Positions 310-13,980 of a DNA stretch of 13,980 nt are shown here, piece by piece (positions within the stretch are counted from its first letter, which is position 1; every line of letters starts with the position of its first letter). The stretch spans positions 1 through 13,980 of the forward strand of contig JAHQWH010000225.1 of assembly GCA_029856105.1 (NCBI GenBank). Reading direction: 5' to 3'. The notes beneath the pieces are model-generated. The model made no database searches and had not been told where the DNA came from. It saw only the letters and a list, made by a program, of their open reading frames with translations. A program made the position numbers and the translations under genes. Source of the stretch: Promethearchaeia archaeon. Lineage in GTDB: Archaea > Asgardarchaeota > Lokiarchaeia > Sigyniarchaeales > SOKP01.

Positions 310-2223
310 TTAGTTTTTATTAATTTGAGCTAGAAATAGATCTGCTATCGTGAGCCATTTCAGCTTTGTTTCAGAGTCAGATTTACTTTTGGTTGCTAAA
401 TTTTTACCTTCTTTTAGATTTTTAAGTGCTAAATCATATTTTTCAAGAGCTTTATAACAAATTCCTAATTTAATGTAAGTTTGATAAACGTACCAATCAT
501 CAATTCCTATCACCATCGCCTTGAGGAACTTTTTGATTGCTTCATCATACTCTTCAAAATACATCAAAATTTCACCGTAAGTATCTTGATATATTCCATT
601 TTCGGGTTCTATTTTAGTGAGTTCTTTTATAATTTTAATCGATTCTTCTTTGTTGTCTAAATAATACGTCCAATAGGCTTTATAACAGATAAGATCATTG
701 TTATTTGGAAATTCTTGAATAAGGTTGTTAATTATCTTTAATCCTGTTTCAATATTTTGATTTCTTCTATGCACTACCGCCGTTAATAATTTAATATCTT
801 TTTCACTTTCAGGAAAAAGTTCAAGCATATTATTCAATAGTTTTAATGCTTCTTGGTATTGGTTAAAATAAATCAATGTTCTAATCTTCAAATAATACAG
901 GTCAAGATTTTCTGGCTTCAAATCAATTTTTTTATCGATTTCTTTTATTTGTTCTTCATATTGATTTTCCATATTTTCAGTGATTTCTAATTGAAAATTA
1001 TCTGATATGCTCTGCCAAATAATACCCTCTAATTTGTCATATGTTTCTTTTAATTTTCTTCTAGTCTTAATTTTATAAGCAAGATATTTAATATATTCGG
1101 GTAAAAACTGTTTTAATGCTGGTTTTAAGTCTGCATTAAATAAGATTTCACAGCTCTTGTTTGCGATACCATCTACTATGGATTCAATATCTATTGTAGG
1201 GTCATTTTGAGTTGATTGTGAGAAGAGTTTATTCAAATAAAACACTTTAGTCATATTATTCTCAACCAATGCTCGAAGAATTCTTTCTATTTTTCCGTCT
1301 GATTTAAAGTAATATTGTTCCCCTGATGGTTGCGGTAATATAAAAAACCTTTGTGGATAGATTTTGCCTTCCGATATTTCAGTAATATAATAGTCAAGCG
1401 TAGTTTTCTTAATTTTATATATTTTTGAAAAATCTTCTGGAGAAATGAAGTTTGGGTAATTATCTGGATGATTAATTGAAAGAAATAATAAAATTTTGTG
1501 AAAAACCGCCTCGTCTTTTAATATTGGCTTTACTTTTTCATAACCTAATGTTAAAATAGTGTTAAGAAATCTAAATTGAATATCTTTATCTTTAATTCTG
1601 AAACAATCGAAAAATTGAATTGTTTTATTAGTTATCTCTTCAATTCGTTTACCTTCTTCTTCTAAAATGGTTTGTCTATCTAAGTCGTATTTTTGAAGCA
1701 TCCTTGAATACTCAGATTTACCGGCTCTAGTTATTATATATTTTCCCTCCTTTTTTATTAAAAAACCCTTTTCGATTAGTATACTCAGATTTTTTGACAA
1801 GGAAGATTGATTAATTGAGAGGGGATCTTCAAGAAATTCAGACCTTTTACAGTAATCATTATTGTAAACCATCCATAGAATCCAGTGAGAGTAGTTTCTT
1901 CCGCTTTTTAAAATAATATTTGGAGGATAAATTAGTTTATGAGTCTTTCCTTTGGGACTGGATAACTCATGAAATTCTTTTCTTCCCTCGGAAGTAATTC
2001 TATAATGCCCTCGAGAAAGTTTTTCTGCATAACCGTTGCGTTTTAAAGCTTCAAGATGTCTAGATAAAGTCCCAGGCGGGATTTCAATTGGTTCCTTACA
2101 AAAATCTGCCCACTTACACACATCATTATTATTCAACATCCAGAGAATGATATGGTCATAATTTGGCCTTTTCCACTTAGAGGGTATATATATCTTTTCT
2201 GGAGGATAAGTTACATTTCCCAT
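310..2223 (-). CDS. Multi winged-helix (2 clear + 1 degenerate wHTH) protein with C-terminal TPR repeats; putative transcription regulator
   Basis: 637-aa ORF. aa 6-88 and 99-177 are homologous (YPP..NY.H.ILWM..NND.CK...F..P..I...LS..L..L...G...K...Y.IT..G), resembling MarR/ArsR wHTH. C-terminal TPR patterns include YQDTYGEILMYFEEYDEAIKKFLKA and TYIKLGICYKALEKYDLALKNLKEG. Confidence 0.8.
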   Translation of the reverse strand: MGNVTYPPEKIYIPSKWKRPNYDHIILWMLNNNDVCKWADFCKEPIEIPPGTLSRHLEALKRNGYAEKLSRGHYRITSEGRKEFHELSSPKGKTHKLIYPPNIILKSGRNYSHWILWMVYNNDYCKRSEFLEDPLSINQSSLSKNLSILIEKGFLIKKEGKYIITRAGKSEYSRMLQKYDLDRQTILEEEGKRIEEITNKTIQFFDCFRIKDKDIQFRFLNTILTLGYEKVKPILKDEAVFHKILLFLSINHPDNYPNFISPEDFSKIYKIKKTTLDYYITEISEGKIYPQRFFILPQPSGEQYYFKSDGKIERILRALVENNMTKVFYLNKLFSQSTQNDPTIDIESIVDGIANKSCEILFNADLKPALKQFLPEYIKYLAYKIKTRRKLKETYDKLEGIIWQSISDNFQLEITENMENQYEEQIKEIDKKIDLKPENLDLYYLKIRTLIYFNQYQEALKLLNNMLELFPESEKDIKLLTAVVHRRNQNIETGLKIINNLIQEFPNNNDLICYKAYWTYYLDNKEESIKIIKELTKIEPENGIYQDTYGEILMYFEEYDEAIKKFLKAMVIGIDDWYVYQTYIKLGICYKALEKYDLALKNLKEGKNLATKSKSDSETKLKWLTIADLFLAQINKN

Positions 2224-5735: not shown

Positions 5736-5786
5736 AAAAAAATTATAACAAAAATTAGCATTTAGCACTCTTGAAAAGAATGCTAA
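5736..5786 (-). terminator. Stem-loop plus oligo-T terminator of the J-domain gene
   Basis: Minus-strand RNA UUAGCAUUCUU-UUC-AAGAGUGCUAA (5786-5762) forms an 11-bp stem with one G-U pair, overlapping the TAG stop. It is followed by U5 (5754-5750) and U7 (5742-5736). Confidence 0.45.
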
Positions 5787-6136
5787 GTATACATTTCTTC
5801 AGGAGGAGGCTTATTGTATGGAGTTCTATAAAAGTTCGAATATAACTGTCTTAAATTTTCTCTAAATCGAGTAGAGTTATATTTCCAAAGCAAATCGCTT
5901 AAATCAACGTTTTTTGGATTGTACCCTGCTTGGTCATAAATTTTCCTTCTTTGGGGATCGCTTAATGTATCGTAGGCTTCGTGTAGTTCAATAAATCTCT
6001 CCTTAGCTTTGGGATCGGTTTTATTAAGGTCGGGATGATATTTTTTCGCTAGTTTCCGATAAGACCGTTTAATCTCTTCCTTGGAAGCGTCTGCTTCGAC
6101 CTCGAGAATTTTATAATAATCCTTATTCTTTTCCAT
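5783..6136 (-). CDS. Small J-domain protein (class III DnaJ-like)
   Basis: [39 protein letters not shown]...RK.YDQ is a J-domain with intact HPD. No G/F region, Zn finger or CTD. Confidence 0.92.
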
Positions 6137-6232: not shown

Positions 6233-7522
6233 TTACTCTTTGATTGCTTTGTGTTCGTAATCTTCCCTTTTTATCATTAGGAAGGCCAAAAGGCCAATAT
6301 TGCCCCCTATGGCTAAAAATAGAAACACTATTAGATACGATGCGGTAGCTGTTAAAATAATTCCTGTTAAAGACATCCCGACTATAGAACCTAAATTTGC
6401 GAAAGCATTACACATAGAATAATAAGTACTACTCATTTCAGGGTGCTGCTTTGAAATTTCAGTTACTACAGCAGCGTAGCTAGAATGTCGCCACCCAATT
6501 GCTATACCTACAAATGACGAAAAGATCAATAAAATATGCCATTCTAATGGAGCCATCATTAGAAATAAAGCGATGGTAGTTATAATGTACGCAAGATAAA
6601 CGCTTATTTTTCTTGTGATTCGATCAGCGATTTGTCCTCCGAGTATTGCTCCAATCACCACCCCAATAGCAATTATCATAGTTAAGTAGCCATTTACTAA
6701 GTATATCTCTAAATCATCGCTAGGCAGTGAAAGGGATGTCCCACTTGAAGATAATAAACCCATTTGTATTAAGATGAAAATTGAGACAAACAAAACACCA
6801 ACAGAATCTATAAGAGCAGCGAATAAAGAAAATCCGTAAGCTTTCCAATCTCTTTTATTGTTGAACATTTCCTTGAGATGCTTACCAATTTTGGCTTCTG
6901 GGTATGACTTAGGCTCTTTTATGAGAACGGTTAAAAATGAACACAAAATAGTTAAAATTCCTATAAGGATAAATAACATTGGTACATTTAAAACGCCGGT
7001 TACTACTAATAAAGCAAATAATGGACCTCCAGCTACAGCTCCTACTGACCTTAGACCCCAATTAAACCCTGATACGCGTCCTAATTTTTCTTTTGGTGTA
7101 ATATCCAGCATTAAACCGTCGATAATTGTATCACCCCAAGCAACTCCAAGAAAAATTAGAAGACCCATAATCGTAAAAACAGAAATGGCGTTTTCAGAGT
7201 TAATCGTGTTATTTAATCCTAAAATCATCCATAATAGTCCTGAAAATGATACCATGCCTATTATCCAAGGTCGTCTTCTCCCTATTTTTTTAAGCCCAAA
7301 TTTATCGCCAAGAATTCCATAAAAAATTTTAAAAATCCAAGGTAAACCAATTATGGATCCCATAAACGCGAGTTTCGAAGCATCGAGCACTCCAATAAAT
7401 TGGATCAAATAAATTGGTATAATTACCGCAAATAGAGATTGATTTATTCCTTGGAAAAGGTAATTCACATTAAAAATAGCAATATAATAACTCTTAAATT
7501 CGACTTGTTCTAGTTCAGTCAT
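6233..7522 (-). CDS. MFS permease, AmpG/acetyl-CoA transporter (PAT)/BT1-like
   Basis: 429 aa, about 12 TM segments. LPWIFKIFYGILGD..GRRRPW and DTIIDG are typical of AmpG/ACATN/BT1-type MFS. Second-half motif A is GGQIADRITRK. Confidence 0.88.
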   Translation of the reverse strand: MTELEQVEFKSYYIAIFNVNYLFQGINQSLFAVIIPIYLIQFIGVLDASKLAFMGSIIGLPWIFKIFYGILGDKFGLKKIGRRRPWIIGMVSFSGLLWMILGLNNTINSENAISVFTIMGLLIFLGVAWGDTIIDGLMLDITPKEKLGRVSGFNWGLRSVGAVAGGPLFALLVVTGVLNVPMLFILIGILTILCSFLTVLIKEPKSYPEAKIGKHLKEMFNNKRDWKAYGFSLFAALIDSVGVLFVSIFILIQMGLLSSSGTSLSLPSDDLEIYLVNGYLTMIIAIGVVIGAILGGQIADRITRKISVYLAYIITTIALFLMMAPLEWHILLIFSSFVGIAIGWRHSSYAAVVTEISKQHPEMSSTYYSMCNAFANLGSIVGMSLTGIILTATASYLIVFLFLAIGGNIGLLAFLMIKREDYEHKAIKE

Positions 7523-7764: not shown

Positions 7765-8241
7765 TTACTCAGGAATTATGATCGTATGGTCCTCTTTAAT
7801 ACGATCTAATACTATTTGAGTCTTAATTTCTTCAACACCGGGAAGGTTTCGCAATTTCTCAATTAAAACCATTGAATCTTCGTGATCCATACATTTAGCC
7901 ATGATAAACAAGGGATATTCCCCCGTGACTATATACGCAAACTTGATTTTTTCCATACCTTCAATATGTCCCTTAATGCGTTCCAAAGGCTCAGAAGAAT
8001 TTACTCGTAATGAAGCTATTACCATTTCGCGATATCCTAATTGACGGCAATCTATTAAAGCTACGTATTTTTTAATAAGATTTTCTTCTAACCTTACTAT
8101 TCGAGACCTTATAGCAGTAGGACTTTTTCCAACTTTCACAGAAATCTCTTTTATTGTAATTTTTGCATCGTTTTGTAGTAATTCTAAAATGTCTTTATCA
8201 ATTCCATCAATCTCTGGAAGTTTTAAGTTTGTTGCTGTCAT
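7765..8241 (-). CDS. Lrp/AsnC family transcriptional regulator
   Basis: N-terminal HTH IDKDILELLQNDAKITIKEISVKVGKSPTAIRSRIVRL. Linker Y.ALID..LG. RAM domain with VTGEY and LRNLPGVEEIKTQIVL. Confidence 0.92.
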   Translation of the reverse strand: MTATNLKLPEIDGIDKDILELLQNDAKITIKEISVKVGKSPTAIRSRIVRLEENLIKKYVALIDCRQLGYREMVIASLRVNSSEPLERIKGHIEGMEKIKFAYIVTGEYPLFIMAKCMDHEDSMVLIEKLRNLPGVEEIKTQIVLDRIKEDHTIIIPE

Positions 8242-8322
8242 GTTATTTTTCTTATTATTTTTATATTTTTTAAAAATTTTATTCTCTAAAGCTTTATTAA
8301 GATTTTATTACTTATAATTTTT

Positions 8323-8354
8323 TCACTAAAATCACACTTTACTTTAGTGATTTT
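8323..8354. promoter_or_regulatory. Putative operator in the lrp/tusA divergent promoter
   Basis: Overlapping perfect 8-bp inverted repeats: TCACTAAA-N12-TTTAGTGA (8323-8350) and AAAATCAC-N11-GTGATTTT (8328-8354). Confidence 0.4.
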
Positions 8355-8500
8355 TTATAGATAAATCAATTTCTTATAGTTAAAAAAACTACTATTTAAA
8401 TATTATTTCATATTTATTTACTACAAAGATATCATAAATTAATTTAATTTGATACCATAATAAAAAAAAATAGATAAAATAACTATTGAAAGTGAAAAAA

Positions 8501-8725
8501 ATGGCTGATAAAACAGTTGATTATACTGGTTTAAAATGTCCGTTACCAGTTTTGAAAACTAAAAAAGAATTGAAAAGTTTGACTTCAGGACAAATAATTG
8601 AAGTAATCGTTGATGATGTTGGGGCGAAGAAGGACATCCCAGCGCTTCTCACTAAAATAGGCGACGAATTAGTCGAACTTCGAGAAGATAATGGAAACTT
8701 AATTTTTGTCATTAAAAAGGCTTAA
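8501..8725 (+). CDS. tusA: Sulfur carrier protein TusA/SirA family
   Basis: VDYTGLKCPLPVLKTKK contains the CPxP persulfide motif, followed by L.SGQI.EV.VDD.GA..DIP. ATG 8501 (74 aa) is preferred over TTG 8486. Confidence 0.92.
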   Translation: MADKTVDYTGLKCPLPVLKTKKELKSLTSGQIIEVIVDDVGAKKDIPALLTKIGDELVELREDNGNLIFVIKKA

Positions 8726-8754
8726 AACGCATTATACGGAGTAAGGATATTAAC

Positions 8755-9123
8755 ATGTCTAAATATATTTTCTTTATTAGCACAGAACCCTATAAATTTC
8801 AAGCTGTTGATTCTTTAATTGAGATTTGTAAAGCTATTATTAGAAAGGGAAATACAGTAAGGGGATTATTCTTTTACGGCTCGGGAGTATACAACTTGAA
8901 GAAAGATATTAGCAGTGGCACTTCAATCAGGAACATTCCAAAGAAGTTAGAAGAATTTTGCGGTGAAAATAAGATACCTGTTGTTGGTTGTAGTACTTGG
9001 GTTAGTCTTACAGGTTTAAACGAAAGCAATTTCATCAATGGAGCTACCGAAGAGGGATTAGGGGACTTCTCAAATTGGGCAATAGAATCAGATAAATTAA
9101 TTGTATTCGGAACGGGGGGCTAA
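8755..9123 (+). CDS. dsrE: DsrE/TusD-like sulfurtransferase subunit
   Basis: I..EPY, FFY.SGVYN, Cys79 (VVGCSTW) at the position of the DsrE/TusD catalytic Cys78, and C-terminal GLGDF......DKLIVF. Confidence 0.85.
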   Translation: MSKYIFFISTEPYKFQAVDSLIEICKAIIRKGNTVRGLFFYGSGVYNLKKDISSGTSIRNIPKKLEEFCGENKIPVVGCSTWVSLTGLNESNFINGATEEGLGDFSNWAIESDKLIVFGTGG

Positions 9124-9127
9124 AACT

Positions 9128-9496
9128 ATGGTAGAATCTGTTGTAATTATAACCGATCAATCACCTACTGGCAAAAATTCTGCAGCTGAAGCGATTCGAA
9201 TTGGTTCGGGATTTGTAGCTCTTGGAGAATCTATCAATTGCCAAATAGTTCTCACTGGAGACGCGGTTTATCTTTTAAACAAACACTCTACGCCTACAGT
9301 CGTTGGTATGGACCCAGTAGATGAATTTATTGAAATAGCAGACTTATCTGACTTGGAAATATATGTTTTAGATAAATCGTTAAAAGAAGCTGGTTTAACC
9401 TTTGAAGATTTAATAGAATACGAGAATTTAAAGGTCATTAGTATCGACGAATTAATCGATTTAATCGAACAAGCAGACACCTGCTTTAGGTTTTAA
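9128..9496 (+). CDS. dsrF: DsrF/TusC-like subunit
   Basis: SP.GK..AAEAIR, L.GDAVYLL, IYV..SL.E.GL, C-terminal LIEQAD..F. Lies between dsrE and dsrH. ATG 9128 follows a G6 SD and is preferred over the ORF-track start at 9101. Confidence 0.8.
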   Translation: MVESVVIITDQSPTGKNSAAEAIRIGSGFVALGESINCQIVLTGDAVYLLNKHSTPTVVGMDPVDEFIEIADLSDLEIYVLDKSLKEAGLTFEDLIEYENLKVISIDELIDLIEQADTCFRF

Positions 9497-9511
9497 CGGG
9501 GGGATATAAAA

Positions 9512-9862
9512 ATGACGCAAGAATTGAGTGAATTTAAATTTTTATATTTATTTGGGTTTAGCGAAATTACAGGGAACCATTTAGAGCGGTTATTACCAAT
9601 ATTGAAAGGCCAAATTAAAAAAGGGGGCCAAATTGGGATTGTTTTAATTCACGATGGGGCAATTGGCATTAATAAAAGAGGCCGGATTACAAAGGCAATG
9701 GAAGAGCTTCTCAGCTTGAAAGTTATATTATATGCTATGATCCCCGATTTGAAAGCTCGTGGAATAGACTTGGAGCAAACGCACGAAAAAATTAAACCAA
9801 TTGAATATGACGACTTAATAGATCTTTTAGATAATACGCTAAAAATAATATCTTGGATGTAA
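9512..9862 (+). CDS. dsrH: DsrH/TusB-like subunit
   Basis: IVLIHDG, YAM.PDLKARG, I.YDD.IDL and C-terminal ISW are DsrH/TusB hallmarks. Confidence 0.85.
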   Translation: MTQELSEFKFLYLFGFSEITGNHLERLLPILKGQIKKGGQIGIVLIHDGAIGINKRGRITKAMEELLSLKVILYAMIPDLKARGIDLEQTHEKIKPIEYDDLIDLLDNTLKIISWM

Positions 9863-9975
9863 TAGTCTGAGACAAAAATTATGATTTTTTTAATAGCATA
9901 TCAAGAGAAATTAGTTAAAAATTTAGTAAAAAAATATAAAAAAATAAAAAAAAAACAGAAAAAAAAGTGTTTAAA

Positions 9976-10404
9976 ATGGTTGAAAAAGTGGTTGAAAAAA
10001 TGAGTTTTATTGTAAGTGATAAATCCTTCGAGAAATTTATGATGGCGACGATACTTGGGACTACTGGAGCAGCAATGGACGAACAAATGAACTTTTTCTT
10101 TACTTTTTGGGGTTTAAGTCTCTTAAAAAAGAAATTTAAGCCTAAAGCTACTGGCATGCCAACCGCTATGAAAGGGATGGGTGCTCTAATGTTTAGGAGA
10201 AAGTTAAAGAAATTTGGGATTGATAACCCTTGGGAATTAATTAAGGACGCTGTTGAAGACGGTAAAATGAAACTTTACCCATGTCAGATGACTATGGATT
10301 TAATGGGTATAAAAAGAGAACAAATGTGGGACTTTGTTGAAGATCCAATTGGAGCAGCAGGTTTCATGGAAATTAGCGAAGGAGCAAAAGTAGTATCGTT
10401 ATAG
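9976..10404 (+). CDS. dsrE2: DsrE2-type (DrsE_2 family) sulfurtransferase/sulfur carrier
   Basis: AAM....FFFTFWGL..L and YPCQMTMDLMG (the only Cys), plus GAAGF. The start could be 9967, 9976 or 9988. Confidence 0.85.
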   Translation: MVEKVVEKMSFIVSDKSFEKFMMATILGTTGAAMDEQMNFFFTFWGLSLLKKKFKPKATGMPTAMKGMGALMFRRKLKKFGIDNPWELIKDAVEDGKMKLYPCQMTMDLMGIKREQMWDFVEDPIGAAGFMEISEGAKVVSL

Positions 10405-10416
10405 ATACTATTCTAA

Positions 10417-10429
10417 TTTTTTTTTTTTT
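10417..10429 (+). terminator. Oligo-T tract between dsrE2 and hdrC (possible partial terminator)
   Basis: T13 starting 13 nt after the TAG at 10404. Confidence 0.45.
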
Positions 10430-10466
10430 ATTCAAGATAATTAAGCAGTAAAAAAGATGGTAAAAA

Positions 10467-11033
10467 ATGTCAGATACAAAAGAATACCACCGAGAATTTA
10501 AGACAGAAAAAGATTTCGATAAAGATTATTTTAAAAATATAGATAGAAAGTCTAATATTTGGCAATGCATTCAATGTGGTTCGTGTACTGCGAGTTGTGA
10601 GAGTGGTAGATGGACCGCATTAAAGACTCGTATGATTATACGAAAAGTTGTTCTTGGAGATTTATCAGTGCTTAGTGATCCTGATATTTGGTTGTGTACT
10701 ACATGCTATCAATGTTATGAGCGTTGTCCTCGCGATGTGAGGCCCACAGATGTTATAATGGAATTGAGAAACTACGCAACAAAACTGGGAAATATATCAC
10801 CAAATCATCGGGCAGTTGTAGGGTACTTGACAAAATATGGACACGCGGTACCGATAAATGACGAGATAAAACAAAGAAGGGTTGAATTAGGATTAGACGA
10901 ACTTCCTCCCACTGCTTTTAAGTTTAAGCAAGAGGGGGACGATAAAGATTTAAAGAAATTTGAAGAACATTTGTTTGACCTTCCTCCAGTTAAGGAAATT
11001 AAGGAGGAAAAAAAGAAGGAGGAGGAGAAATAA
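10467..11033 (+). CDS. hdrC: Heterodisulfide reductase subunit C
   Basis: Two ferredoxin motifs, CIQCGSCTASC and IWLCTTCYQCYERCPR. C-terminal GHAVPI......R..LGL...PPT as in methanogen HdrC. Confidence 0.93.
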   Translation: MSDTKEYHREFKTEKDFDKDYFKNIDRKSNIWQCIQCGSCTASCESGRWTALKTRMIIRKVVLGDLSVLSDPDIWLCTTCYQCYERCPRDVRPTDVIMELRNYATKLGNISPNHRAVVGYLTKYGHAVPINDEIKQRRVELGLDELPPTAFKFKQEGDDKDLKKFEEHLFDLPPVKEIKEEKKKEEEK

Positions 11034-11036
11034 GTT

Positions 11037-11954
11037 ATGGTAAAAGAAAATACATTTGCGTTTTTTTTAGGGTGTCTCATGCCTAATAGATATCCAGCAA
11101 TTGAAAAAGCTACGATGTATGTTATGGAAAAATTAGGTTATACTTTAATAGATATGGAGAGAGCCACATGTTGTCCCGCTCCAGGAGTATTTCGCTCGTT
11201 CAACAAAGTTGATTGGATGGTGGCGGGTGCGAGAAACCTCTGTATAGCTGAGAAGCTTGACGCGGACATTATTACTGTCTGTAATGGATGTTTTGGAACG
11301 CTCCAAGAAATAAACAAACATTTAAAAGAAAACGAAGAGCATAGGGAATTGGTAAACGAAAAACTGAAACTTCTTGGCGATTATGAGTTTAAAGGAACGA
11401 TTGATGTCCGACATATTATGTCGGTGTTAGGATATGAAGTTGGTCCTTGGGGTATTGAAGAGGTTATAATAAGAAAAGTTAACGCCCGTGCTGCGGTACA
11501 TTACGGTTGTCACTTTCTAAAACCAACTAGAATTAGAGAAATTGAAAGCTCTGAGGGACCAACGATCGTAGAAGAGTTTATCGAAGCGTTAGGGGTAGAG
11601 TCTGTAAGATTTAAAGAACAATTAACTTGTTGCGGCGCTGGCGGAGGAGTAAAAGCGTACTCTGGCGACGCAAGCATGACGATTTTTGGGGAAAAAATGA
11701 AAAATATTGAGGAAGTTAAACCTGATTTTATATTAGATATATGTCCTTTCTGTCATCTACAATTTGAGACTGGACAAGATCATCTTAATAAAAATGAAGA
11801 TTGTAATTACGATTATCCAGTTATTCACATTTCGCAACTTGTTGCATATTGTATGGGGATGGACCAAGAATTTGTTGGTCTTCAATACCAATTAATGGGC
11901 AAAGATTACATTTTTGGCGGGCAAGAAATCAAAAAAGAAGAGGAGGCATTGTAA
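11037..11954 (+). CDS. hdrB: Heterodisulfide reductase subunit B
   Basis: Two complete CCG domains: FFLGC / CCPAPG / CNGC and HYGCH / CCGAGGG / CPFC. Confidence 0.95.
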   Translation: MVKENTFAFFLGCLMPNRYPAIEKATMYVMEKLGYTLIDMERATCCPAPGVFRSFNKVDWMVAGARNLCIAEKLDADIITVCNGCFGTLQEINKHLKENEEHRELVNEKLKLLGDYEFKGTIDVRHIMSVLGYEVGPWGIEEVIIRKVNARAAVHYGCHFLKPTRIREIESSEGPTIVEEFIEALGVESVRFKEQLTCCGAGGGVKAYSGDASMTIFGEKMKNIEEVKPDFILDICPFCHLQFETGQDHLNKNEDCNYDYPVIHISQLVAYCMGMDQEFVGLQYQLMGKDYIFGGQEIKKEEEAL

Positions 11955-13980
11955 TTGACTGTTAAAGAAGAAAAAGTAAAGCCAACAGAAGAAATTATAG
12001 AAAAAACTATATCTCAAGATTCAAAAGATGAAGAGCCTCGGATTGGCGTTTTTGTATGCCATTGCGGGCACAATATTGCTGGAACTGTAGATGTAGCTAA
12101 AGTAGCAGAATACGCAGGAACTTTACCCAATGTGGTAAAGGCAGAGCATTACATGTTTATGTGTTCAAAGCCAGGCGTTCAGATGGTTAAGGATTCCATT
12201 AAAGAATTAGGAGTTAATAGAACTGTCGTAGCAAGTTGTTCTAAAAACCAACACGGCAGAACCTTTGCGAGAACTATCGCTGAAGAGGGTATTAATAAAC
12301 ATCGCCACCAACAAGTTAATATACGGGAATATTGTAGTTGGGTTCATAAAAAAGACGAAGAAAAAGCGACTGCAAAATCGCTTCGTTTGGTAGAAGCTGG
12401 AGTTAATCGAGCTCGAAAACTTGACGAGGTAGAAACAAGGCGAGTTACGACCACTAAAGCAGCTTTGGTGATTGGAGGGGGTATCGCGGGACTTAGATCT
12501 GCTCACGATATGGCAGAATTAGGAATATCAGTGTTTTTAGTTGAGAAAAACTCCACGATAGGAGGCCATATGACTAGATTGAACAAAACATTTCCTACAT
12601 TAGAGTGTCCGCAATGTTCAATATCCCCGTTAACGAATGGAGTAGCAAATCATCCATTAATTGAGCTTTATACAAACGCTCAAGTTAAAAGCGTTGAGGG
12701 ATCTTTAGGAAATTTTGAAATTGAAATCGAAATTAAGCCTCGATATGTTAAAGATAATTGTACTTCGTGTGGTGAGTGCTCCTTACATTGTCCAGTAGAA
12801 GTGCCAAGCGAATGGGATAAAGGTATGTCTATGCGGAACGCTATTTATAAAGCGTATCCTCAAGCAATTCCCGCAACATTCGTAAGGGATAAGAAGGCTT
12901 GTATTGAGTGTAATACATGTATTAACATATGTCCAGTCCAAGCAATTGATTTTTCGATGCAACCTGAAACTAAAACGGTTAAAGTTGGCTCAATCATAGT
13001 TGCTGCGGGTTTTAGCGAATACGACCCTACGGAGATTGAACCTTACCACTATGGGCAAGAGGGATACGAAGATGTCATTACTCAATTGAAATTGGAAAGA
13101 ATGTTATCACCAACTTCTTTAACGAATAGCGAAGTATTGCGACCATCTGACGGAAAGCTTCCTAAAAGCGTTGTAATAATTCAATGTGTAGGTAGTAGAA
13201 ACGATCAAGTCGGTAATCAATATTGTACGGGCGTGTGTTGTAAATTTGCGATAAAAAACGCTCGAATCGTAAAAGAAATGTATCCCGAAACCGATGTAAC
13301 GATTTGTTACATTGATATAAGAACTCCTGGATTAAATTTCGAAGAATTATATAAATCTGCTCAAGAAGTTGGAGTCAGATTCATCCGAGGGAGACCTTCA
13401 GAAATTGTTAAGAATCCAATTAGTGGAGAGTTAACTGTTATTGTAGAAGATACTTTGAGCATGACGCCTTTGCAATTATCAGCTGATTTGGTAGTGTTGT
13501 CAGCAGCAATGGTGCCTCCTGAAGGAATTGGGCCGCTAGGTTCTAAACTTCACGTATTACGCTCAAAAGAAGGATTCTTGAAAGAATTTCACATAAAAAT
13601 GAACCCTACATTAAGTAGCAAAGGAGGAATATTTTTAGCAGGTGCGATTCAAGGGCCAAAAGATATTTCTGAGACCGTAGCTCACGCAGGAAGCGCTGCT
13701 GCTCTAGCGGCTGCACCATTGGTAAAAGGCTACATAGAAAAGGAAATGTTGGTTCCAACGATAGATTACGAATTATGTGTTAATTGTGGGATTTGTAAAA
13801 CGATATGTGCTCCAGCTGCTATTGATATTGACGAAAACGGAAGACCTACAGTTAACGAAATAGCGTGTAAATCATGCGGTATGTGCATGGCAAGTTGTCC
13901 AACGAGCGCAATTCAATTGATTAATTTCACAGAAGATCAACTATACGATGAAATAATCGCCGTATCAGGTGGAGGTGCCG
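11955..13980 (+). CDS. hdrA: Heterodisulfide reductase subunit A (full-length type), stop codon beyond window end
   Basis: Manual translation gives 675 uninterrupted codons from TTG 11955 (AGGAGG at 11941-11946). Motifs: RIGVFVCHCGHNI, NIREYCSWVH, ALVIGGGIAG, KTFPTLECPQC, inserted ferredoxin CTSCGECSLHCP/CIECNTCINICP, QCVGSR..YCTGVCC, GIFLAG..QGPKDI, C-terminal ferredoxin CVNCGICKTIC/CKSCGMCMASCP. Confidence 0.95.
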   Translation, partial: MTVKEEKVKPTEEIIEKTISQDSKDEEPRIGVFVCHCGHNIAGTVDVAKVAEYAGTLPNVVKAEHYMFMCSKPGVQMVKDSIKELGVNRTVVASCSKNQHGRTFARTIAEEGINKHRHQQVNIREYCSWVHKKDEEKATAKSLRLVEAGVNRARKLDEVETRRVTTTKAALVIGGGIAGLRSAHDMAELGISVFLVEKNSTIGGHMTRLNKTFPTLECPQCSISPLTNGVANHPLIELYTNAQVKSVEGSLGNFEIEIEIKPRYVKDNCTSCGECSLHCPVEVPSEWDKGMSMRNAIYKAYPQAIPATFVRDKKACIECNTCINICPVQAIDFSMQPETKTVKVGSIIVAAGFSEYDPTEIEPYHYGQEGYEDVITQLKLERMLSPTSLTNSEVLRPSDGKLPKSVVIIQCVGSRNDQVGNQYCTGVCCKFAIKNARIVKEMYPETDVTICYIDIRTPGLNFEELYKSAQEVGVRFIRGRPSEIVKNPISGELTVIVEDTLSMTPLQLSADLVVLSAAMVPPEGIGPLGSKLHVLRSKEGFLKEFHIKMNPTLSSKGGIFLAGAIQGPKDISETVAHAGSAAALAAAPLVKGYIEKEMLVPTIDYELCVNCGICKTICAPAAIDIDENGRPTVNEIACKSCGMCMASCPTSAIQLINFTEDQLYDEIIAVSGGGA

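Follow-up and report, generated by a model that had tools for sequence, protein, structure and literature searches.

Genes for heterodisulfide reductase (HdrABC) abound in organisms that lack coenzyme M (CoM) and coenzyme B (CoB), among them Asgard archaea, Bathyarchaeia, Korarchaeia and many anaerobic bacteria. What the enzyme reduces there is a long-standing gap, which carries into models of energy metabolism and into the hydrogen- and sulfur-syntrophy models of eukaryogenesis. Here we address this question at a locus of a Promethearchaeia archaeon (GenBank assembly GCA_029856105.1) in which genes for the sulfur carriers TusA, DsrEFH and DsrE2, hereafter called the relay, are followed by hdrC, hdrB and hdrA. 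The window, meaning the whole stretch of 13,980 nucleotides that was analysed, is the entire contig JAHQWH010000225.1 (C224) of a 3.66-Mb metagenome-assembled genome (MAG; 92% complete, 6% contamination). Judged from gene content, relay and reductase belong to a real, conserved and accessory Hdr system of Lokiarchaeia, with its own carrier set and an input arm that combines a dead hydrogenase with a flavoprotein. Sulfane sulfur as the ultimate oxidant of this Hdr is the best single reading of the evidence, and we put its chances at about even.

A preliminary description of the locus, made from the nucleotide sequence, had placed nine genes in this part of the contig. Open reading frame listing and profile searches recovered all nine at the same coordinates, on the same strands and in the same order:

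7765-8241, minus strand: Lrp/AsnC-family regulator, divergent from tusA (PF13404, PF01037)
8242-8485, intergenic: divergent control region between lrp and tusA, with the TATA-like sequence ATTTAAATA and an inverted repeat
8486-8725, plus strand: TusA, single Cys18 in LKCPLP (PF01206, E 7e-24)
8755-9123, plus strand: DsrE/TusD-like protein, active-site Cys79 (PF02635)
9101-9496, plus strand: DsrF/TusC-like protein (PF02635)
9512-9862, plus strand: DsrH/TusB-like protein, cysteine-free (PF04077)
9967-10404, plus strand: DsrE2 of the soluble DsrE2B type, Cys106 in YPCQMTM (PF13686, E 3e-24)
10467-11033, plus strand: HdrC, two [4Fe-4S] motifs (TIGR03290, 175.4 bits against a cut-off of 160)
11037-11954, plus strand: HdrB, catalytic subunit, two CCG motifs for non-cubane clusters (TIGR03288, 359.3 bits against 345.15)
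11955-13979, plus strand, to the contig end: HdrA, bifurcating flavoprotein (5odc_A, E 6e-194)

The gaps between the eight co-oriented genes were likewise as previously given: 29, -23 (+1 from the next ATG), 15, 104 (113 from the ATG), 62, 3 and 0 nt. The start codon of dsrE2 is uncertain (GTG at 9967, ATG at 9976, or later), and hdrA is cut by the assembly at the contig end, 3 residues short; its orthologue has 678 residues and is followed by mvhD.

Since both methanogens and sulfur oxidisers encode Hdr-type enzymes, we asked which kind the window encodes, relying on curated NCBIfam cut-offs and on E-values against structures in the PDB. Both CX2CX2CX3C motifs of HdrC are intact, at residues 34 and 77; HdrB carries its CCG motifs (CX31-39CCX35-36CXXC) at residues 13-85 and 158-239; and HdrA has four ferredoxin motifs together with the GxGxxG fingerprint for flavin adenine dinucleotide (GGGIAG). 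HdrB matched five solved methanogen HdrB chains with E-values of 1e-89 to 4e-71 and is about 59% identical to HdrB of M. thermolithotrophicus (61 of the first 103 aligned columns). Residues 26-667 of HdrA align to residues 2-646 of 5odc_A, the full methanogen-type architecture, whereas the short sHdrA (6TJR) gave only a partial match (residues 342-589, E 2e-38). HdrA falls under the NCBIfam HdrA/HdrA2 cut-offs (734 against 1100) because those models include a fused MvhD part. As in the sHdr systems of sulfur oxidisers, TusA and DsrE-family transferases accompany the reductase (tusA, dsrEFH, dsrE2 and a second gene, tusA2, described below). There is, however, a single hdrC-hdrB pair rather than C1B1/C2B2 (or B3), and the operon holds no lbpA or lipoate-ligase gene; the only two GcvH-type genes of the genome lie away from it, on contigs C225 and C16. 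The equivalog cut-offs passed by HdrB and HdrC, the full-length HdrA and the single hdrC-hdrB pair thus bear out the earlier assignment to the canonical methanogen type, not sHdr. The host genome encodes at least 10 HdrA-like proteins and about 14 CCG paralogues, the best of which is 42% identical to HdrB of the window, and the Hdr of the operon is therefore one module among many in this host, the most methanogen-like of them.

The carrier cysteines of TusA, DsrE and DsrE2, which the preliminary description had called intact, are also conserved among distinct orthologues: Cys18 of TusA is invariant (47/47), and Cys79 of DsrE and Cys106 of DsrE2 are kept in 40/40 and 121/122, respectively. Cys47 of DsrF is retained in 36 of 38. 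Three paralogous subunits are encoded in E-F-H order and the DsrE/TusD cysteine is present, as expected of DsrEFH. All three score under their NCBIfam equivalog cut-offs (DsrE, TIGR03012, 48.7 bits against 89; DsrF, TIGR03010, 34 against 94; DsrH, TIGR03011, 45 against 49.2), and the set is therefore best regarded as a divergent branch. DsrE2 clears the cut-off of PF13686 (86 bits against 25) and does not reach that of the equivalog model NF047629 (56 against 210). Its nearest solved relative is PDB 2QS7 (E 1e-20), a DsrE2B homotrimer of Sulfolobales (PMC11094781). Selenocysteine in DsrE2, suggested by a match with one internal TGA in two relatives, was rejected, the TGA proving on translation to be a stop upstream of the start codon.

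We examined 18-kb stretches around DsrE2 orthologues, distant relatives being found with an alignment of five DsrE2 sequences. Within the genus, 30 of 41 genomes encode an orthologue of DsrE2, and across the order several families have one. The arrangement of lrp divergent from tusA-dsrEFH-dsrE2-hdrCBA, followed after about 4 kb by tusA2, was present in 15 of the first 20 relatives fetched and then in more, closed genomes included; dozens of related genomes share this order, with identities as low as 63% in HdrB and 48% in DsrE2. Among named records the full block is found in Promethearchaeum syntrophicum MK-D1, Candidatus Lokiarchaeum ossiferum B35 and Candidatus Sigynarchaeum. In the family (135 genomes, which are kin, so that the counts are descriptive), DsrE2 is encoded in 73, an HdrB orthologue (E < 1e-100) in 63, both in 59 and neither in 58. 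The two genes lie within 2.5 kb of each other in 58 of the 59 genomes that have both, and in the 59th they are split over two contig ends. All four genomes with HdrB alone have the gene at a contig edge. The 14 with the relay alone are mixed, some ending at contig edges and some genuine; the latter include one full relay without hdr and several with lrp divergent from tusA-dsrE2 only.

In three of the relay-only genomes a 3' stub of tusA2 directly follows dsrE2 (L079, G202:C76, 7971-9163; L077, G028:C6, around 7204; L083, G270:C18, around 14423), and the first of these (G202) also has a dsrE-dsrH fusion remnant. The stubs are the scar of a deletion that removed hdrC through tusA2 as one block. 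The relay can thus stand alone, the Hdr of this operon never appears in its absence, and gain or loss affects the redox block as a whole. The linkage of relay and Hdr is thus conserved and behaves as a unit, and the adjacency is far from unique to this host genome. Two variants were also seen. In MK-D1 (L100, NZ_CP042905.2, 2068-7100) a second, divergent hdrC-hdrB-hdrA-mvhD-ferredoxin set (DSAG12_01134-01138, 38-44% identical) lies directly upstream of tusA, so that the relay is flanked by Hdr modules on both sides. In a genome from another family of the class (L049, G060:C5, 7400-18000), dsrE2-hdrC-hdrB is followed by an array of HdrA-like genes, split or duplicated, and by a tusA, and the divergent genes are dsrEF and lrp.

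The window ends within hdrA, and the remainder of the operon was read mainly from a relative whose Hdr proteins are 96% identical (L034). There, hdrA is followed by mvhD, a gene for a 413-residue protein, a gene for an 821-residue flavoprotein and tusA2, before a GNAT gene. The whole operon thus comprises about 13 genes, of which the window holds the first two thirds. In the host, the end of contig C28 carries tusA2 and the part of the flavoprotein fusion gene that encodes its final 691 residues, and mvhD and the 413-residue gene fall in the assembly gap. Together, these reading frames show that the operon encodes an HdrABC of methanogen type that is soluble and complete, along with an MvhD connector, and sulfur carriers bracket its redox genes, TusA standing first and TusA2 last.

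What would supply this Hdr with electrons? The 413-residue protein matches Oxidored_q6, and its structure was predicted with 16 orthologues. In the model, residues 1-125 superpose on MvhG (5ODC_E, Z 13.8), and residues 263-413 resemble a [NiFe] large subunit in shrunken form, superposing on FrhA (6QGT_A) with Z 10.9 over 147 residues that are scattered across target positions 40-404. The middle part, modelled at low confidence, has 13 cysteines, all invariant, and corresponds in position to a wire of three clusters. No cysteine occurs after residue 189, and because the C-terminal part is cysteine-free it cannot bind Ni-Fe; the [NiFe] large subunits of the host are encoded elsewhere, on C19 and C225. 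In the 821-residue fusion protein a GltD/NfnB-type NAD(P)H flavoprotein stands between FrhB_N and FrhB_C, and the FrhB N-terminal part matches 8RJA_E (E 7e-25). CofE is encoded in the host genome, which makes F420 plausible. On these grounds the input arm has no active hydrogenase but a nickel-free MvhG::MvhA relic, used as wire and scaffold, and it ends in a flavoprotein of the kind that oxidises NAD(P)H and/or F420H2; these, and not H2, are the predicted electron donors. TusA2 carries a CGLVCP (CxxxC) motif, with C14 kept in 22/22 and C10 in 19/22 orthologues. Among NCBIfam models it is matched best by YedF, a protein of selenium metabolism.

To learn what HdrB might reduce, we compared its substrate pocket with 5ODR. 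In that structure the backbones of Gly46 and Gly198 bind the CoM sulfonate, Arg201 contacts the CoB carboxylate, Arg14 and Arg240 contact the CoB phosphate, and Phe233 belongs to the lipophilic tunnel, as listed in a structure-activity study of 2026 (PMC13261682). In place of R14, G46, G198, R201, F233 and R240, the HdrB of the window has R, G, G, K, F and T, and K at 201 and T or S at 240 are fixed in all relay-linked HdrB orthologues. The change at position 240 was rejected as a sign of an altered substrate, given that M. marburgensis HdrB (8RVU) has Val there, and the conservative R201K is the only consistent pocket difference. The proposal of the preliminary description, in so far as it has HdrB turn over a persulfide, finds no support in the pocket: the retained R14, G46, G198 and F233 suit a small CoM-S-S-CoB-like disulfide no less than a persulfide on a protein. 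Hdr is reported to accept non-native disulfides with carboxylate and other head groups (PMC13261682).

The other sulfur genes of the host were examined next to the operon's own. In the 92%-complete MAG we found no mcrA, no ComA or ComDE (sulfopyruvate decarboxylase), no DsrC/TusE (PF04358), no sulfite-reductase domain (NIR_SIR) and no clear MnmA, the PP-loop matches to PF03054 being weak and partial; for CoB synthesis, which lacks a specific marker, no search was made. The preliminary description had proposed this genome check, and the missing mcrA, together with nearest records that carry the names Promethearchaeota and Lokiarchaeota, upholds the view of the host as a non-methanogenic Asgard archaeon. 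Housekeeping sulfur routes are served by TusA copies of their own: one is encoded next to YeeE on C19, and on C228 (8682-10033) a tusA is directly followed by a cysteine-desulfurase-type gene. On C58 (4689-5295) a tusA adjoins a single DsrE-like gene; in MK-D1, genes for SirA, a DsrE-like protein, IscS and a scaffold protein stand in a row.

The host genome has exactly three DsrEFH triplets, each at most 7 kb from a CCG-domain (HdrB/HdrD-type) gene, for which the rough chance expectation is about 1e-4 (14 CCG loci in 3.66 Mb). On C19 (23791-29950; L085:8791-14950), hdrC-like and hdrB-like (CCG) genes are followed by genes for a molybdopterin oxidoreductase (689 residues, Fdh-like), TusA, YeeE/YedE (Sulf_transp), DsrE, DsrF and DsrH. 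This island is divergent from a channel gene of the formate/nitrite(/hydrosulfide) family, FNT (L085:7382-8494, minus strand), and could be a formate-linked counterpart or a thiosulfate or selenium uptake route. On C158 (15255-23315; L086:1255-9315, minus strand), dsrEFH comes first in a co-oriented series that continues with genes for a GNAT protein, a GlcD-like protein, an acetoacetate decarboxylase-like (ADC-like) protein, a second GlcD-like protein, an HdrD-like CCG/Fer4 protein and a second ADC-like protein. The recurrence suggests that CCG proteins are general partners of DsrEFH in this lineage, replacing DsrC/TusE.

Outside Lokiarchaeia the relay looks different. In other Asgard genomes it takes the form tusA-dsrE2, often with dsrEFH and lrp, and no common redox partner was found among its genome neighbours there. 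Pairs of DsrE2B and TusA are common in Bathyarchaeia, again without Hdr, and the Acidianus locus L160, found with the same DsrE2 query, is a classical sHdr cluster. By this distribution the relay predates its link to Hdr, canonical HdrCBA having joined it within Lokiarchaeia. In two Spirochaetia MAGs (L122 and L168; L122:2495-8489) we observed the order arsR-tusA-mvhD-qmoA-like-qmoB-like-qmoC-like-dsrE2, an independent case in which a bacterial HdrA-family (Qmo-type) complex without a CCG subunit lies between TusA and DsrE2.

Control sequences of the operon are conserved as well. The regulator gene is tied to the relay in every family examined. It is divergent in the family of the window, MK-D1 and L. 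ossiferum have it on the operon strand between dsrE2 and hdrC, and the Lrp-DsrE2 pair is retained even in Freyarchaeia and Jordarchaeia. In the control region ATTTAAATA lies at 8394-8402, with AAAAAACTA just before it, and an 8-bp inverted repeat, TCACTAAA/TTTAGTGA, spans 8323-8350. ATTTAAATA is present in 17 and TTTTCACTA in 15 of 25 distinct orthologous lrp-tusA regions, and we take the TATA-like box and the repeat as a putative promoter and Lrp site. Within the dsrE2-hdrC gap a run of 13 T (10417-10429, plus strand) is followed by a GGTG-type ribosome-binding site; of 27 distinct orthologous gaps, 25 have such a run, 9-15 T long. This tract is a candidate leaky archaeal terminator or attenuator inside the operon, which would yield more carriers than enzyme; Lrp and the tract together probably set the timing of the system's synthesis and the ratio of relay to Hdr. 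In cultured MK-D1 growing on amino acids, both halves are transcribed: the twelve genes DSAG12_01139-01150 have 191-348 reads per kilobase per million, values typical of that genome (Imachi 2020, Suppl. Table 3).

How might the parts work together? Sulfane sulfur from S0, polysulfide, thiosulfate or cysteine would be held as a cysteine persulfide or thiosulfonate on TusA, DsrE, DsrE2 and TusA2 and brought to Hdr, where it would act as the ultimate high-potential acceptor and be released as H2S. This exergonic branch would let HdrA drive a second electron onto ferredoxin, such that electrons at the level of NAD(P)H or F420H2 would be raised to that of ferredoxin and leave as H2 or formate. The species met by HdrB could be the carrier-bound or inorganic persulfide or polysulfide itself, linear polysulfide being a further possible substrate. 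Alternatively, it could be a disulfide made when a second thiol resolves the persulfide and H2S leaves, as DsrC does for DsrK. Candidates for the second thiol are the CxxxC pair of TusA2, in a DsrC-like role, or a small CoM/CoB-like compound. Because the HdrB pocket is nearly unchanged, we weight the direct and the mediated model equally and consider the two about equally likely. Precedents for the chemistry are the reduction of DsrC trisulfide by DsrK, a CCG protein, and the tolerance of Hdr for non-native disulfides noted above. The proposal as a whole, in which carriers feed sulfane sulfur to a bifurcating Hdr as its ultimate acceptor, we hold to be very nearly a coin toss. The narrower statement that protein-delivered sulfane sulfur is the bifurcation oxidant of the Lokiarchaeial methanogen-type HdrABC, directly or through the DsrC-like CxxxC of TusA2, is possible and rather doubtful. 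The preliminary description had interpreted the locus as a candidate sulfane-sulfur-reducing Hdr system; of that interpretation the conserved linkage, the canonical Hdr, a host in which no Mcr, CoM-synthesis, DsrC/TusE or sulfite-reductase genes were found and the transcription of both halves in MK-D1 were supported, and the action of HdrB on persulfides was not.

Several points count against this proposal. Roughly one in two genomes of the family is without the operon, which is hence dispensable. No Hdr accompanies the relay in Atabeyarchaeia, Freyarchaeia, Jordarchaeia and Heimdall-, Hod- and Odin-type genomes, and one Heimdall-type relay adjoins a gene for an Mrp/NUBPL Fe-S carrier; the ancestral role of the relay was therefore something else. 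The pocket of HdrB keeps the look of a site for two anionic thiols, one small and one with a long chain, and its narrow lipophilic tunnel for a heptanoyl chain would not easily accommodate a cysteine carried by a folded protein; the pocket is the chief argument against direct reduction of such a carrier-bound persulfide. The potential of persulfide/sulfide couples lies below that of CoM-S-S-CoB, so that bifurcation from NAD(P)H would have little margin. The conserved oligo-T run may partly uncouple the relay half from the Hdr half, and the MK-D1 transcript values were discarded as evidence of co-regulation, being too flat to discriminate.

The main rival is that Hdr reduces a small CoM-S-S-CoB-like heterodisulfide unrelated to sulfane sulfur, the carriers serving synthesis of the thiol cofactor or merely sharing regulation. 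The conserved pocket sites for the CoM sulfonate, the CoB carboxylate and phosphate and the lipophilic tunnel speak for it, as do scores of HdrB and HdrC above the curated CoB-CoM equivalog cut-offs and the reported tolerance of Hdr for carboxylate and other head groups (PMC13261682). Moreover, "other heterodisulfide cofactors" have been proposed for other non-methanogens (PMC10667645). We nevertheless think it unlikely: ComA, ComDE and the heterodisulfide-making Mcr were not found in the MAG, these fermenters have no known oxidising reaction that would regenerate the disulfide, and the constant company of the relay and the bracketing of the redox genes by carriers would be left unexplained. 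The Hdr-free relays of other Asgard classes and of Bathyarchaeia, and the copy beside the Mrp/NUBPL gene, would instead be accounted for if the relay handled housekeeping or biosynthetic sulfur or selenium (for Fe-S clusters, thiolated cofactors or tRNA, or selenocysteine and selenophosphate), or if Hdr freed sulfide or selenide. The similarity of TusA2 to YedF fits such a role; Lokiarchaeota use selenoproteins, TusAD transcripts of M. maripaludis respond to selenium (PMC11097638), and a 2025 bioRxiv preprint on Nerearchaeum marumarumayae casts the system as reductive sulfur assimilation. An operon missing from about half of the family is not essential, however, and separate TusA copies stand beside the cysteine desulfurase and YeeE. 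TusE and a clear MnmA were not found in the MAG, HdrA and MvhD of the operon are Cys forms without an in-frame TGA, and a bifurcating complex of more than 10 subunits would be costly for trace sulfide in sulfidic sediment; we judge this explanation improbable.

It is more improbable still that the system runs oxidatively, in the manner of sHdr, with sulfane sulfur converted to sulfite or thiosulfonate and electrons passed to NAD(P)+, F420 or ferredoxin. Carriers of the TusA/DsrE type beside Hdr-like genes are a hallmark of sHdr sulfur oxidisers (PMC11094781), and the same DsrE2 query retrieved the Acidianus sHdr cluster. Yet HdrA is of the long methanogen type and matches 6TJR only in part, one HdrB/HdrC pair takes the place of C1B1/C2B2, the block contains no lbpA or lipoate-ligase gene and both GcvH homologues lie elsewhere. 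In addition, the hosts live by strictly anaerobic fermentation, and no acceptor with which they could oxidise sulfur is evident (PMC7015854).

Set beside characterised enzymes, the system joins two known kinds, Mvh/Elp-Hdr and the carrier coupling of sHdr. With MvhAGD-HdrABC and VhuAGD-HdrABC of hydrogenotrophic methanogens (5ODC, 9SFI, 8RVU) it shares the full-length HdrABC, its cluster motifs and nearly the same pocket, MvhD and an MvhG-like wire. It differs in that neither Mcr nor CoM synthesis was found in the MAG, the large subunit is a cysteine-free stub of about 150 residues fused to MvhG, and an FrhB/GltD flavoprotein, five to six sulfur-carrier genes and Lrp are added. For a "heterodisulfide" mediated by a protein, the closest mechanistic model is the pairing of DsrC with DsrK of DsrMKJOP, in which a CCG-domain subunit acts on a tri- or disulfide borne by a protein, together with the Allochromatium route from TusA through DsrEFH to DsrC; here, where DsrC/TusE, DsrAB and DsrMKJOP were not found, DsrE2 or TusA2 with its CxxxC would have to fill the acceptor slot. 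FlxABCD-HdrABC of Desulfovibrio and MetFV-HdrCBA-MvhD of acetogens are HdrABC systems of non-methanogens that likewise have an MvhD-like connector and take up electrons through an arm of the NAD(P)H type; where their disulfide partner is known, it is a protein. To our knowledge, these operons have other input subunits and no sulfur-carrier genes. The nearest characterised analogue of the arm is ElpABC-HdrABC of Methanothermobacter marburgensis, a hydrogenase-free complex in which an F420H2 flavoprotein of the FrhB/FdhB type, an MvhD homologue and a dead FdhA remnant replace Mvh (PMC12350162). The scaffold here derives from MvhG/MvhA and not from FdhA, which makes it an analogue and not an orthologue; the flavoprotein here has an inserted NfnB/GltD NAD(P)H module, and Elp-Hdr, unlike the present system, reduces CoM-S-S-CoB in a methanogen host and has no sulfur carriers. 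In sHdr-LbpA (Hyphomicrobium, Aquifex, Sulfolobales; PMC11094781) a CCG Hdr-type enzyme is likewise genetically tied to TusA/DsrE-family carriers, but the short HdrA of about 340 residues without ferredoxin domains, the two HdrB/HdrC pairs, the lipoate-binding proteins and the aerobic or denitrifying sulfur oxidation of that system are not features of the one described here.

Imachi 2020 (PMC7015854) treated Asgard Hdr as Mvh-Hdr or Flx-Hdr and left the carriers unmentioned. In the Asgard literature we found the operon in the Nerearchaeum preprint alone, which concerns a member of the Promethearchaeaceae, in the order of the host, and already draws the same sulfur-carrier/Hdr hypothesis. The earlier remark that no characterised example of this combination exists still holds in that the combination is uncharacterised; the hypothesis itself is no longer new. 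Our analysis differs from the preprint on the donor, the operon having its own hydrogenase-free arm.

The rest of the contig (310-7522) has no part in the sulfur/Hdr system. It encodes the following genes outside the operon, of which the MFS and DnaJ genes alone recur as neighbours, in the closest relatives only:

310-2223, minus strand: protein with winged helix-turn-helix and tetratricopeptide repeat (TPR) domains, 637 residues
3040-5672, plus strand: TPR protein, 654 residues, directly 5' of a Ras/Rab-like small GTPase
5783-6136, minus strand: DnaJ-domain protein
6233-7522, minus strand: transporter of the major facilitator superfamily (MFS)

Taken together, our results place the most methanogen-like Hdr in the constant company of sulfur carriers in the culturable MK-D1, L. 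ossiferum and Nerearchaeum, which makes the question of its substrate directly testable. If the sulfane-sulfur reading is false and a small thiol pair is found, the system would point to an undiscovered cofactor, so that the answer would be informative either way. If the reading is true, sulfane sulfur would be the acceptor that drives bifurcation in Lokiarchaeia, which of all cultured organisms are most closely related to the host lineage of eukaryotes. This would solve the question of what Hdr reduces without CoM and CoB, and zero-valent sulfur would be an electron sink hidden in the fermentation and syntrophy of Asgard archaea.

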